From IMG/VR virus record IMGVR_UViG_3300046328_000321, positions 1-64,000 of that record: a DNA stretch of 64,000 nt; one strand, written 5' to 3'. The stretch is from a virus. Made by a program: the position numbers and the translations under genes. Positions 9,986-63,981 of the stretch are shown here, piece after piece. The notes below the pieces were generated by a model, which was given only the letters and a program-made list of their open reading frames with translations, was not told where the DNA came from and made no database searches. The stretch's first letter is position 1. Each line of letters begins with the position of its first letter.

Positions 9986-12492
9986 ATGATGCCATCTTCT
10001 TCTCTACCCTTTAATTTAGATCTGCTAAACCTCACAGATATAGATATCAGAAGTCTACGACCTGTAAAAGTATTGGATATCACTGATGGTCTTAGTAAAA
10101 ACTTTCACCCTGATGGATTGTTCAGCACAGAAACATTTGGGATGATTGGTGAAGAGAAAAGAAATCGGATGTTCTCTTTTATAGAATTACATATACAAAT
10201 TCTTCACCCTATTGTTTTTAAAGCTGTGTATGATCTAAAAAGTCTATATGGTGACATCATGTCATCCAAAGGGTATGCTATTTTCGATCCTCAACTTAAG
10301 GACTTTGTTAAATCAGATCCTGTTGAAGGTAAAACAGGTTTTGATTTCTTTATTAAACATTTCAAAGAAATCAAATTTGAAGAAAGACCTTCTCCCAGAC
10401 GAGAGTTTAACATCAAGTTGGTGAATAAATATAGAGAAAAGGCACTGATCGATAAATTTGTAGTTATGCCTGCTGGGTTAAGAGACTACACTTTAGATGA
10501 GAATAACCAACCCAGCGAAGATGAAATCAATACTTTATATAGGAAGGTATTATCTTTAGCCGGTGTGATCGGTACAGTGGACTCTAAACTAAATGCTGAA
10601 TATTTTAACAATATGAGGTTTCAGTTACAGATTGCTTGTAACGAGATTTTTGAATATATTAAGAACTTGCTTGAAGGTAAAAGTAAACTTGTTCTAGGTA
10701 AATGGGCTGGAAGAAAAACTTTTCACTCTACTAGAAATGTGATTACTTCTTACGTAAGTAAAAACAAGAAACTATTTGGTCCTAATCATGTCTCTACCAA
10801 CCAGACTGTAGTTGGTCTTTATCAGTTTCTTAGAGCCACGTTACCTCTGTCTATTAAGAATGTCAGAGATGGTTACATGACTAAAGTATTTTCAGGTCCC
10901 AATACACCTATGATGTTAACGGATAAAAAAACACTAAAGAAAGTCATAGTACCCATTGATGGTAAGGAATACGATAAGTGGATGACCAATGAAGGTTTAG
11001 AGAAAGTGTTTGCTACTTACGGTCAAGAAAACTTAAGACACGATCATGTTGAAATAGCTGGTCATTATGCAGGACTTATTTTTAAAGGTAAGGATAATAC
11101 ATATCGTTTTCTACAAGACATAGATGAGTTACCTGAAAGATACAATAAAGAAGATGTATCGCCCATCACAGTGACAGAACTCATTATGTTAAGTGTTTAT
11201 GAAGGTTCCAGTGAAATACCTTGTTTTGTTACTCGTTATCCTGTCACAGGTTACGGCAGTATCTATCCAAGTTATGTTTATTTGAAATCTACGGTAGAGA
11301 ATGAAATTAGAATTTTGTTAGATGATAATTGGGAACCAACAGAACAAACATGTGCAGAATTTCCTACACCAGGTAGTGGTTTTTTTAATTCTTTCTCTGT
11401 GAGTAGTTCTCATTTAGGAAGATTGGGAGCTGATAAGAAGCAGTTTTTGGATATTTAAATTTGCTCTTTTACCTATAATGCGGTTTAATTAACGTTATGG
11501 TGAAAAGCATGTTTAAAAGATTTTTCCACACAGTTTTTTTGATTTACAACATTAACTGATGTGGAAAAAGCTTGAGATTGGTAATCTCATAAACAAAATT
11601 TGTTATGTCCTCTTAGGTAGTAATATCTAAAGAGTTTTTTCTTGAATTGCTAGAAAGCCTTTAGAGCTTTGTTAACCACTGCGAGACGAAAGTCAAAGCC
11701 AAGGTTTGAAAATAACAGAGATTAGGTAATCAGCAGCTAAGACGCTAAAGTCAGTTGTGAAATTGATCATGCGTAAAGTTCAACGACTAACCCTTAAGCA
11801 AGGTGTAGGAGATAGTATCTCCGAAGTGGGAAACACCCTACTGTTCTACAGAGGGTGAAGATATAGTCTGCTCCTTTGGGAAAGCCAAAGGCGGGTGTCA
11901 AAGCACACCGGGTTACTTTATGATAGGCTTGATGCCGAACGACTGTAACTGGACAATAGGTTCGATAAACGTGAATACTGATTCACAACTGTCGCCTGTG
12001 GAGGAAATACCACAGTGATAACTTCTTGAATTGCTGGGAACTCTTGTTAGACTGTTGAACTAAAGCGGAGTGTGAAAACACATACGTCTATGTTTGAAAA
12101 TCAGCAGGTAGAGACAATCAGCAGCTAAGCTCCTTTAAACTGGAGAAAGTTCAACGACCATCTCAGAAATGAGAGTAGGATCTAGTAGGTCCGAAGTGGG
12201 AAGCATCTAAACAGGTAAAGCTGAAGATGGTGATATGGTCTGTTCCTGTATGAGAATACAGGCGGGTGTCGAAGCATACCGGGTGTAAAGGGTAGGCTAT
12301 TATAGCTGAGCGGTTACATCGGACAACAAGGGTGACACGATGTCTTTGGTCTGTGTGATGAGTGAAGAATCCAAAGCAGAGATCAAAGACAAATTAAATT
12401 CTAGAAATTATTATATCGGAGTTAACAACAAGATGAATTTCAGTGGTAATGACGACATTTTGGATTTGACCTTGGCCAACATGACGAGTTAA
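9986..12492 (+). CDS. Virion RNA polymerase beta'-like catalytic subunit (phiKZ gp180-like); spliced exons 9986-11434, 11961-11966, 12331-12492 (~538 aa)
   Basis: DGLFSTETFG, TRYP motifs; joining the three exons restores LGAD-FD-GDTMSL, the DxDGD Mg-binding motif. Confidence 0.92.
11435..11960 (+). mobile_element. Group I intron 1 (no intact homing endonuclease)
   Basis: Upstream exon ends in T, intron ends in G; core motifs P gaattgctagaaa, Q aatcagcagc, R gttcaacgacta, S aagatatagtct; P7.1/P7.2 hairpins (IA-like). Confidence 0.9.
11961..11966 (+). other. 6-nt micro-exon TTCGAT (Phe-Asp of DFDGD)
   Basis: Lies exactly between the terminal G of intron 1 (ggacaatagG) and the start of intron 2; supplies the missing FD in frame. 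Confidence 0.88.
11967..12330 (+). mobile_element. Group I intron 2 (ORF-less)
   Basis: P gaattgctgggaa, Q aatcagcagc, R gttcaacgacca, S gatatggtct (P7 GACCA/TGGTC covaries with GACTA/TAGTC of the other introns); IGS GTCG pairs exon CGAT with a U.G wobble; ends ggacaacaaG before GGT GAC. Confidence 0.92.
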
Positions 12493-15400: not shown

Positions 15401-17369
15401 CAAAATATGAAAGAATCTGAGATCGTTACCTACGTAGGTGAAGGTGGTCGCGGTAAGGAATCTATGAACAAAGCCACCAGAGCTTATCATAGAAGTAACG
15501 TGGGTGTGGTATCTGAAGCTTCTGTAGATAGTGGGGATGTAGGTATTAACTTCTATCTCTCAGCCAATCCTAATTTTAAAGACATGCGTGGAGTCATCAA
15601 AACTGATAAAATAATGACTCCTTCATCCATGGTAACGACAGCTACTATGCTTGCACCAGGTAGCAGTAACGATGATTAACTGTATATAGTGAAAACTGTA
15701 TACGCTAGCTGTAATACGTTAAATTTTAAAACAGTCGAAAGATTCTTTCAATACAGAGTTTAGTCAGATAGTAAAGTGTTTTTCTCAGAAAAAATAAATC
15801 TGCTAAATATTACGGTAATGATAATAATGTTAAAGTAACAACTTTAAATTAGTGTCTTAATCAAAAAAAGTTAAAAGTTTCTTTTGCCAAACATAAATAT
15901 TCGTATTACAGTCAGCTAAGTCCTTTGAAAACGAAACTTTTCAAAGAATCTCTTTGAATTGCTAGAAAGCCTTTAGAGCTTTGTTAACCACTGCGAGACG
16001 AAAGTCAAAGCCAAGGTTTGAAAATAACAGAGATTAGGTAACCAGCAGCGAAGCTCCTTTAAACTGGAGAACGTTCAACGACTAGAGCCTTATCAGCTCG
16101 TAAAACCCCAAGCGGGGAAGAAGCGGAGAGCACCTTACTTTAACAGAAGGTGAAGATATAGTCTGTTCCTTTGGGAAAACCAAAGGTGGGTGTCGTTGCA
16201 CACCAGGTGTAAAAGGTAAGCTATATAGCTGAGCGCTTACATTGGACAATAAGGGTAAGAGAGTAAATTTTGTGCAAATTCAAATGTCTCATTTGATCGC
16301 CTGTAGGGATTATCATCAACCCATGGTAAGAACTGGTTATGAATATATCGTCTCGGGTAGAACAAGTGAACTCTTTGCTTGTAATGCCGATCAGGACGGT
16401 AAAGTATTGTCTGTGGATGATCGTGGTATCATTGTGCAATTTAAAGATGGTACTCAAAAGGGCATTCAACTGGGTCGCATTTACGGCAAGGCTGAAGGTA
16501 GTGTCTATCCCCATGATGTAAAAACACATTTATCACCAGGTGTTAAGTTCGTCAAAGGTGATAACTTGGCTTATAATTCTGGATTTTTTGAACAAGATAT
16601 ACTTGATCCCAAGCGTGTCGTGATGAAGAATTCCATGGTTATTAAAGTAGCTTTATCAGAAACTGCTCAAACACATGAGGACAGTTCTTCTGTTTCCCAT
16701 CGTGTATCAGGTATGGCTACTGCTAATACTACGAAAATGAAATCTGTCACAGTTTCTTTTAAACAGAATGTTCATAACGTAGTTCCATTTGGTAAAGAAA
16801 TTAAGCCTAATGACATCTTGATGGTATTGGAAGATGAAATCACTTCTACCGGACAATTTGATGAGGCGTCTTTATCGGTTCTAGCCGATTTATCAAAACA
16901 GACTATCAAGTCTAAATATGACGGTGTACTGGATAGAATTGAAGTTTATTACCACGGATCTAAAGAGGATATGAGTCCTTCTTTAAGAGCTTTAACTGAT
17001 AAAAGCGATAAGTTGATTTCATCTATTTGTAAGTCTACAGGGACTCCTGTTATTACAGGGGAGGTGAATGACGAGTATCGTGTTAGCGGTAGTAGACTCG
17101 GACTAGATAAGGCAGAAATCAAACTTTATATCACCATCGCTACTGATGTTGGTGTGGGTGATAAACTTGTGTTCGCTAATCAAATGAAGAGTGTGGTTGG
17201 TGAGGTTATGGATTATGATGTCCATACTGAAAGTGGTGAGCGTATAGATGCTATCTTTGGATTCAGGTCCATCATGGCTCGTGTCGTTAACTCTCCTTTT
17301 ATCATAGGTACCACTACTACGTTGTTAAGAAAAGTTGCTGAAAAAGCTGTCAAAGTTTATAAAGGTTAA
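12497..17369 (+). CDS. Virion RNA polymerase beta-like subunit (phiKZ gp178-like); spliced exons 12497-15676 and 16254-17369 (~1431 aa)
   Basis: Splicing gives SSNDD-GKRVNFVQIQMSH (equivalent to RpoB HDDANRALMGSNMQRQ); HEDS and GDKLVFANQMKSV RpoB-type motifs. Confidence 0.9.
15677..16253 (+). mobile_element. Group I intron 3
   Basis: Exon ends GAT, intron ends ggacaataaG; P gaattgctagaaa, Q aaccagcagc, R gttcaacgacta, S aagatatagtct. Confidence 0.92.
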
Positions 17370-63008: not shown

Positions 63009-63035
63009 GGGCGGATGGCGAAATAGGTAGACGCA
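63009..63035 (+). pseudogene. 5' fragment (acceptor strand + D-arm) of a disrupted Leu-type tRNA
   Basis: GGGCGGA-TG-GCGAAATAGGTAGACGC-A; acceptor partner TCTGCCC-A-CCA lies at 63971-63981. Confidence 0.75.
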
Positions 63036-63038
63036 AAA

Positions 63039-63536
63039 ATGGATAAAGAAAAACTTCTTGGATTATATCCAGGTTACACTTCTGTTTTGGGACCTTACAC
63101 AAGGCCGGACGGTAGAAAACACGTTATACTTAATAATTCTAACGCTTCTAACGGAACTAAGGGTAAGACTAAAACTATCTCTTACCCCAAAGCCTTAATG
63201 GAAGTTGAATTAAATAAGAAACTCAATCCAGATGAAACTGTCGATCACCATGACAGAGATTTCACTAACGATAACAGTATTAATTTAAAAGTGAAGACGC
63301 GCTCTTTACACGCGTCTGAAGATGCTTTACGAATTAAGGTAGAAGATATTAGATGTCCACAATGTGGAAAATATTTTACACCTAGTGTAAGTCAAAGAAA
63401 TAAAGTAAACAGTATAATTGCTGGTCCATTTTGTAGTAAACAGTGTTCCGGGTTATATGGAACAAATATTCAAAAAGGTATGCAGCCTTTTAAGAGAACA
63501 GAAATTAGAAAATATTACTATCGTAAAGATAAATAA
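63039..63536 (+). CDS. Free-standing HNH endonuclease with C-terminal zinc finger
   Basis: ETVDHHDRDFTNDNSINL....RSLH HNH motif; CPQC and FCSKQC. Confidence 0.85.
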   Translation: MDKEKLLGLYPGYTSVLGPYTRPDGRKHVILNNSNASNGTKGKTKTISYPKALMEVELNKKLNPDETVDHHDRDFTNDNSINLKVKTRSLHASEDALRIKVEDIRCPQCGKYFTPSVSQRNKVNSIIAGPFCSKQCSGLYGTNIQKGMQPFKRTEIRKYYYRKDK

Positions 63537-63559
63537 ATATTTTATTAGAGAACATTGGT

Positions 63560-63889
63560 GGCCCGCTGATGAAATTGGTAGACATAACGGAAAACCAGAA
63601 AGTTAGTCCGCCTTTACTAGTAATAGTAAAGTAAACTGTGGGTGAACTCAGGAGAATCTAAAGCGCAAGCCATGATAATCGTGAGCCAAGCTAGAAGTAC
63701 ACTTCTAGAAGGTGCAGAGACTACTGGAAAGGTAAAGTCCTTTTAATAACCAGCTAGAGCGCCCACTACCGTAATAGAATTTCTATCGGTAAAGAGATAG
63801 TCCATGTCCATTGGAAACTTTGGAACACATGCTTAAAATCCGTCGCTTCCGAAAGGAGCATTCCGGTTCGATTCCGGAGCGGGCCACCA
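63560..63889 (+). tRNA. trnL: tRNA-Leu(UAA), intron-containing (exons 63560-63591 and 63832-63889)
   Basis: Acceptor GGCCCGC/GCGGGCC, anticodon stem ACGGA/TCCGT with loop CTTAAAA, long variable arm, T-arm TCCGG-TTCGATT-CCGGA, A73 and encoded CCA. Confidence 0.88.
63592..63831 (+). mobile_element. Group I intron in tRNA-Leu
   Basis: P3 gtgggtg/cgcccac, P gaactcaggagaa, Q aatcgtgagc, R gtgcagagacta, S aagagatagtcc; terminal G at 63831. Confidence 0.85.
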
Positions 63890-63911
63890 ATGTTCTCTTC
63901 AATCTTTAATA

Positions 63912-63981
63912 CTGCTCGTAGTTAAATGGATATAAAGCTTCTAAGTTTTAGTTCCAAGTTCGATTCCCGTTCTGCCCACCA
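63912..63981 (+). pseudogene. Chimeric pseudo-tRNA: degenerate tRNA-Arg(UCU)-like 5' part joined in the T-loop to the 3' end of the broken tRNA
   Basis: gctcgtagttaaatggatataa..cttctaa..ccaagttcgattc then ccgttctgcccacca; T-stem and acceptor strands do not pair internally. Confidence 0.65.

Follow-up and report, generated by a model that had tools for sequence, protein, structure and literature searches.

The tRNA-Leu(UAA) gene lying close to the 3′ end of the phage DNA analyzed here is probably functional, and what interrupts it is probably a member of a widespread, undescribed type of group I intron that is spliced after an A. Comparison with related genes makes it very likely that the intron is a working, undescribed variant; in the naming scheme of Williams its type would be called Leu.0Ag. 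The fold of the intron, the logic of its junction, and the conservation and covariation of both are seen directly in the window (the whole stretch of DNA that was analyzed, 64,000 nt) and in its homologues.

Gene, intron and homologous family

The window covers the opening 64 kb of a viral record of 113 kb with a CheckV completeness of 43%, and its G+C content is 36.9%. When introns are allowed (ARAGORN -i), a tRNA-Leu(UAA) is called at 63560-63889 with a 240-nt intron at 63592-63831, and the Rfam family RF00028 matches 63576-63824 with 62.4 bits (gathering score 50, E 1.7e-15). Default ARAGORN and the Rfam tRNA model both fail to call the gene at 63560-63889 as a tRNA, which indicates that tRNAs of this kind are under-annotated. 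The exons follow the bacterial type-II tRNA-Leu pattern, with a 7-bp acceptor stem and a 3-bp D stem closed by a AAAUUGGUAGA loop, and when they are joined the anticodon stem ACGGA/UCCGU encloses the loop CUUAAAA. The last base of the 5′ exon is A63591, the last base of the intron is G63831, and the 3′ exon begins CTTAAAA at 63832. Only one junction gives a 7-nt loop, and because the bases flanking the two boundaries differ, this junction is unable to slide. The 5′ exon lacks T beyond 63585, so that an exon ending in U is unavailable, and a G immediately preceding the loop sequence is found at 63831 only. AGUCCG (63605-63610) is the exact complement of the joined exons, CGGA followed by CU. 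An earlier sequence-only reading of this DNA had given the same coordinates for gene, intron, exon ends and guide, with an intron ending in G behind a 5′ exon ending in A and an internal guide sequence AGTCCG complementary to the ligated CGGA and CT; ARAGORN -i and inspection of the sequence bear out each of these points, and the guide covaries with the exon in homologues. Coordinates of the individual elements are collected in Table 1. A perfect 13-bp inverted repeat (63547-63559 / 63890-63902) prolongs the acceptor stem of the window gene, pairing the 5′ leader with CCA and the trailer; it was not seen in the other family members looked at.

Table 1. Elements of the intron-bearing tRNA-Leu(UAA) gene and the neighboring endonuclease gene, in window coordinates.
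Feature	Position	Strand	Basis
Free-standing HNH endonuclease gene, 165 aa, 23 nt upstream of the tRNA	63039..63536	+	PHROG 14913 HNH endonuclease, E 8e-19
5′ exon: acceptor 5′ strand, D arm, anticodon-stem 5′ strand ACGGA (63587-63591)	63560..63591	+	ARAGORN -i; cloverleaf pairing in 16 homologues
P1 exon strand CGGA, 5′ splice site after A63591	63588..63591	+	pairs with 63607-63610; exon/guide covariation
Group I intron, 240 nt, without ORF	63592..63831	+	RF00028; structure counted on alignment A1
P1 extension hairpin, AAC/GTT around loop CAGAAA	63593..63604	+	MFE fold of P1 segment
Internal guide sequence AGUCCG	63605..63610	+	UCCG (63607-63610) pairs with exon
P2 hairpin, 8 bp, GUAA loop	63612..63631	+	compensatory change in 8/8 pairs
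P3 (63638-63644 / 63760-63766)	63638..63766	+	encloses P4, P6/P6a, P7 5′ strand, extra hairpin
P4	63648-63653 / 63679-63684	+	counted on A1
P6/P6a	63686-63712	+	counted on A1
P7 5′ strand GACUA	63719..63723	+	pairs with 63798-63802; invariant 16/16; fits Rfam consensus
Extra hairpin between P7 and P3′	63724-63753	+	covaries in A1
P8 hairpin	63767..63791	+	compensatory in 4/5 pairs
P7 3′ strand UAGUC	63798..63802	+	counted on A1
P9.0, AUG 63804-63806 / CAU 63828-63830	63804..63830	+	3/3 pairs covary
P9 hairpin inside P9.0, GAAA loop	63807-63824	+	counted on A1
Omega G, final intron nucleotide	63831..63831	+	adjoins covarying P9.0 helix; G itself fixed in scan patterns
3′ exon: complete anticodon loop CUUAAAA, UCCGU strand of the anticodon stem, then long variable arm, T arm, acceptor 3′ strand and encoded CCA	63832..63889	+	ARAGORN -i; cloverleaf pairing

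A scan of viral contigs for the P7 3′ strand followed by CTTAAAATCC identified 13 further phage tRNA-Leu(UAA) genes with an intron at the same place, and a looser scan of these contigs added nothing of a different kind. Species-representative genomes contributed three more, in the isolate chromosomes of Curvibacter microcysteis RS43 and C. cyanobacteriorum HBC61 and in one betaproteobacterial MAG, and a metagenome scan, which left tRNA position 39 free, another 43. The family totals 60 genes (51 distinct sequences), whose introns measure 220-344 nt; within the first 14 members, the intron is 62-79% and the mature tRNA 62-78% identical to that of the window. ARAGORN -i places the junction identically in the window and all homologues, and all 51 distinct genes are interrupted between tRNA nucleotides 31 and 32. 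Because the omega G, the loop start GCTTAAAA and two stem bases were specified in the scan patterns, they are not independent tests; the A at position -1 and the guide sequence were left free. Within these free positions the guide, which reads G-U-C-C-S, complements the last four exon bases in 51/51 (exon:guide pairs GGGA:UCCC in 39, CGGA:UCCG in 11, and AGGA:UCCU in 1). In 50/51 the guide U is preceded by G, and the P10 G-C pair is likewise present in 50/51 family-wide and in 15 of the 16 rows of alignment A1. The metagenome contig Ga0326514_10375450 (L285) is the sole member with A in place of the guide G (AAUCCC), and its P10 G-C pair would be lost. An exact search of the viral contigs with a 19-mer of the 5′ junction gave no match, and by blastn the whole gene is absent from GenBank phage records, among which related intron cores were found in crAss-like phages, Flavobacterium phages, the cyanophage psbA intron and a 735-kb phage. 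A search for homologous phage tRNA introns, proposed as a check by the sequence-only reading, has in this way produced 50 other distinct phage, metagenome and bacterial genes of the same layout.

Two RNA states and the 5′ splice site

Alignment A1 comprises 16 sequences, with P1, P10, P2, P3, P4, P6, P7, the extra hairpin, P8, P9.0, P9 and the tRNA stems written out. In the ribozyme state 96.1% of its cells are paired and 52 of the 77 pairs show compensatory change; none of 500 shuffles scored as high, and controls in which the structure was slid along the alignment were 36-46% paired. The tRNA cloverleaf that forms across the intron is 100% paired, with compensatory change at 15 of 20 pairs (shuffles as high, 0/500; slid controls, 26-46% paired). 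Both the intron fold and the tRNA cloverleaf are clearly under selection. Assignment to the group I core is based on covariation of P3, P4, P6 and P8 and an invariant P7 in the 16 sequences of A1, together with an Rfam score above the gathering score; P7 is the guanosine-binding helix of group I introns. P9.0 covaries at all three positions (e.g., AUG/CAU, GUG/CAC, AAA/UUU) and, as this helix lies just before the terminal G, its covariation fixes the 3′ splice site. At the 5′ side, the P1 pair adjoining the splice-site pair covaries (G-C in 12, C-G in 3 of the A1 sequences), while A31:U, the pair at the splice site, is constant, tRNA pair 31-39 being A-U throughout the family; covariation consequently backs the neighboring P1 pair and not the splice-site pair itself. 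In the middle of P4, a G.G mismatch (63651/63681; A1 columns 99 and 141) is present in 16/16 sequences and is flanked by covarying pairs.

Few features of group I introns are as constant as the U.G wobble pair at the 5′ splice site, the textbook determinant of where cleavage takes place. No U at -1 and no such wobble is found in this family: the -1 base is A and faces a guide U in 51/51 distinct genes, leaving the guide G without an exon partner. Since membership in this ribozyme class rests on the core, the missing U.G makes the intron a variant and not a non-member. The tRNA-Leu intron of Anabaena needs a pyrimidine at this site, paired to a guide G, and lost its activity when the pair was swapped (PMC12355055); a C-G pair at the splice site inactivates the Tetrahymena intron, according to Williams 2020.

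The first intron base (+1) is A in 21, U in 16, G in 14 and C in none of the 51 distinct genes. Its identity covaries with that of the guide base lying two nucleotides upstream of the guide U (U-A 15, G-C 6, A-U 5). The resulting 26/51 paired cases compare with 17.6 expected under shuffling (p 0.0004, a value that ignores relatedness). In members with a paired +1 base, half of the family, P1 is continuous apart from a single G bulge opposite the scissile bond; in the remaining members, including the window, the guide G lies inside a 1x2 internal loop. Minimum free energy (MFE) folds of isolated P1 segments recover the exon-guide helix in 51/51 and leave the G unpaired in 42/51. In the window, G63606 has no exon partner in P1 and is able to pair with C63832 in P10, as is A63605 with U63833. 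The use of U.G by relatives with this core was taken from Williams' curated seeds and from reading alignment A2. Among these seeds, Lys.2Ug, Phe.2Ug and Leu.1Ug share the core, having an extra hairpin with UAAUAA and a P7 strand GAGAUAGUCC or GAUAUAGUCC, and their wobble G is the first base of a guide of 3-4 nt that lies just ahead of P2. G63606 occupies the position of this wobble G. Judged from these sequences, the simplest description would be a canonical P1 minus its U partner, in which the unpaired G would still mark the splice site.

We infer the splicing chemistry, a landmark role for the unpaired G, and joint spread with the HNH endonuclease encoded upstream, as follows. In the precursor, UCCG (63607-63610) would pair with CGGA (63588-63591) to form P1, replacing the anticodon stem, and the RNA would be cut after A63591, Watson-Crick paired to U63607, at a site marked by G63606, bulged or in a small internal loop opposite the scissile bond. 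After this first step, G63606 and A63605 would pair with C63832 and U63833 (P10), P9.0 would put G63831 into the P7 guanosine pocket, and the exons would be joined. The anticodon stem ACGGA/UCCGU would then re-form around the 7-nt loop CUUAAAA, giving a 90-nt tRNA that would read the commonest leucine codon of the phage. The intron would spread together with the upstream HNH endonuclease, whose target it would disrupt.

Alternative readings of the junction

Demand for an exactly joined tRNA can be judged from the bacterial members of the family and from codon use. No second tRNA-Leu(UAA) was found in the two Curvibacter genomes (4.9 and 4.8 Mb) with a 3′-half pattern and a D-loop-to-anticodon pattern, leaving the intron-bearing gene as the sole tRNA-Leu(UAA) detected in both. 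It is surrounded there by ordinary genes of the chromosome, which encode a TctC-family receptor, an Exo_endo_phos protein and an alpha/beta hydrolase. Under the established rules of decoding, UUA requires the tRNA-Leu(UAA) isoacceptor; with a sole gene detected to supply it, the precise 7-nt loop has to be made. TTA accounts for 33% of leucine codons in the long ORFs of the phage and is its commonest leucine codon.

Two other placements of the splice site are rejected. The canonical 34/35 site fails, as GGA is followed by variable bases and CUU is located downstream of the intron, and a P1 register shifted to give A.G plus G.U fails, as exon position 28 covaries with the guide in the unshifted register. 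A return to the canonical register, with A63592 (+1) as the true -1 base, a cut 1 nt further 3′, and either an 8-nt loop N-CUUAAAA or a 3′ site that has moved as well, would account for the match in position between G63606 and the wobble G of related introns, and with U at +1 in 16/51 genes a canonical U.G pair with the conserved G could form one position downstream. It is nevertheless improbable, as the +1 base varies among A, G and U in step with an intronic base and not with the G, the seven loop bases are invariant, and P10 would be lost, with C facing A. If the 3′ site were shifted too, the last intron base would be C and tRNA position 32 would be A or G in 35/51 genes; in either form the register would have to serve the only tRNA-Leu(UAA) detected in Curvibacter. 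An error of sequencing or assembly at 63590-63595 that conceals a normal U before the intron has next to nothing in its favor, and is ruled out by the identical junction in 50 other distinct assemblies from unrelated samples.

Other readings accept the junction after A63591 and question what becomes of the RNA. Given that mutants of the wobble pair are severely impaired in model introns, the RNA may not splice by itself, its first step being carried out by a protein cofactor, by hydrolysis or by some other helper-dependent route. We regard this as unlikely: the family occurs in phages, Betaproteobacteria and varied metagenomes without a common neighbor gene, an HNH-like ORF is near only ~10 of 60 loci, and the core is that of a complete, conserved ribozyme. 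It is very improbable that the intron is, in the phage of the window, a decaying passenger of a homing cassette that yields no working tRNA. The scrambled surroundings, with a broken outer tRNA-Leu, a tRNA-Arg remnant and, just past the window, a tRNA split by an HNH insert, would suit such decay, but all helices of the window copy are intact and fit the family consensus, CCA is encoded, and TTA is the leucine codon that the phage uses most. A working intron spliced after A31 is the reading retained in what follows.

Known tRNA introns, the HNH endonuclease and the biology of the family

According to Williams 2020, 5292 bacterial tRNA introns were mapped into 21 types, with U at -1 and a terminal G in 98.5%; the one reported exception to U at -1 is Leu.3Cg (72 cases, in Proteobacteria), whose splicing is said there to need testing. 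Neither a position-0 nor an A(-1) type appears in the text and seed alignment of that study, and full-text literature searches found no description of a tRNA intron of either kind. The sequence-only reading had suggested a non-canonical splice-site variant or a new insertion position, and comparison backs both, with site 31/32 and A(-1):U in 51/51. A 2014 review placed all phage introns then known in protein genes (PMC3984707); the present family shows that phage tRNA genes do carry group I introns.

The classical tRNA-Leu(UAA) intron, Leu.3Ug, resembles that of the window in its host gene and isoacceptor, in being an ORF-less ribozyme with a terminal G, and in the short pairing of its guide with the end of the 5′ exon. 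However, Leu.3Ug is inserted between U34 and A35 (CUU before the intron with its terminal g, AAAA after it), uses a U.G pair (with guide GAGU in locus L034), and has an IC3-type core without a hairpin between P7 and P3′. The window intron has neither the insertion between U34 and A35 nor the compact IC3 core: it lies at 31/32, has an A-U pair and carries the extra covarying hairpin, and its P1 takes up bases of the anticodon stem, excluding that stem, while the whole loop CUUAAAA belongs to the 3′ exon. Leu.3Cg is similar in being a natural, recurrent tRNA-Leu intron without a U.G wobble, yet, as described by Williams 2020, it has C-G at the classical 34/35 site with the G still paired, whereas in the window a purine at -1 pairs with U and the G is unpaired.

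A closer relative is Leu.1Ug. Its seed Mga42.Leu.1Ug, in Williams' alignment, is also in a tRNA-Leu with an exon ending in CGGA; GAGUCCGC immediately precedes a P2 capped by GUAA, and the intron carries an extra hairpin containing UAAUAA and the P7 strand GAUAUAGUCC. The guide GAGUCCGC beside P2 and the UAAUAA-bearing hairpin core are both found in the window intron (a motif-level comparison of the seed row with A1/A2), and on these sequence motifs the two introns probably belong to the same lineage. They differ in that the Leu.1Ug exon, in this seed, keeps U32, which can wobble with the guide G and precede the cut, whereas in the window the exon ends at A31, the variable +1 base is intronic, C32 is supplied by the 3′ exon, and the G lacks an exon partner. 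A search for Leu.1Ug genes in the viral contigs found none.

The free-standing HNH endonuclease gene that adjoins the ORF-less intron's host gene in the window, at a distance of 23 nt, has homologues beside other such genes. These lie directly upstream of the 31/32 intron type at L289 and L290, the latter homologue passing Pfam HNH_3, and ~0.8 kb upstream at L313 and L315; weaker HNH-like ORFs are present just downstream at several other loci. At L034 (3001-3830), a 65%-identical homologue is located 11 nt upstream of a tRNA-Leu(UAA) gene with a classical Leu.3Ug intron. The HNH gene upstream, and its homologues at other such genes, suggest a homing cassette in which the endonuclease is the probable mobility partner of the intron. 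In collaborative homing, a free-standing endonuclease and an ORF-less intron act at the same target (PMC3984707), as described for F-CphI with the cyanophage psbA intron (PMC6083498) and for T4 mobE (PMC2790892). The window resembles these cases in its ORF-less intron and in the free-standing HNH gene beside the interrupted gene, and differs in that the target is a tRNA gene and not a protein gene. By analogy, one endonuclease lineage together with two unrelated introns in the same anticodon region would fit collaborative homing, and the intron may protect the gene from the nuclease, as the sequence-only reading had also considered.

The surroundings of the cassette contain further tRNA fragments. 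Two parts of a broken older tRNA-Leu (5′ part to position 26 at 63009-63035; T loop to CCA at 63959-63981) lie on either side of the HNH gene, the interrupted tRNA-Leu and a tRNA-Arg(UCU)-like remnant (63913-63966), which resembles a tRNA-Arg of Pectobacterium phage PM2. A search for an intact copy of the broken outer tRNA-Leu found none, and at L034 a tRNA 3′ remnant is also present downstream. Just past the window, at 64101-64766 of the record, a 571-nt insert coding for a second HNH protein divides another tRNA gene, in which neither an Rfam intron core nor a matching 3′ anticodon-stem strand is present. Other Rfam group I introns are located in the window at 11590-11890, 11967-12262 and 15897-16186, and there are nine Rfam group I matches across the 113-kb record, several of them in tandem.

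Taken as a whole, the broader reading is somewhat more plausible than not: a widespread natural lineage that has given up U.G for an A-U splice site and an unpaired guide G, which later pairs with the first base of the 3′ exon, and that phages may spread as a cassette of HNH gene plus protected tRNA-Leu overwriting a resident tRNA-Leu. If U.G is indeed replaced by A-U and an unpaired G throughout a large family under selection, the family would offer a natural system for splice-site recognition without the contact between wobble pair and receptor, and in Curvibacter microcysteis RS43 such an intron resides in what looks like the only tRNA-Leu(UAA) gene of the organism.
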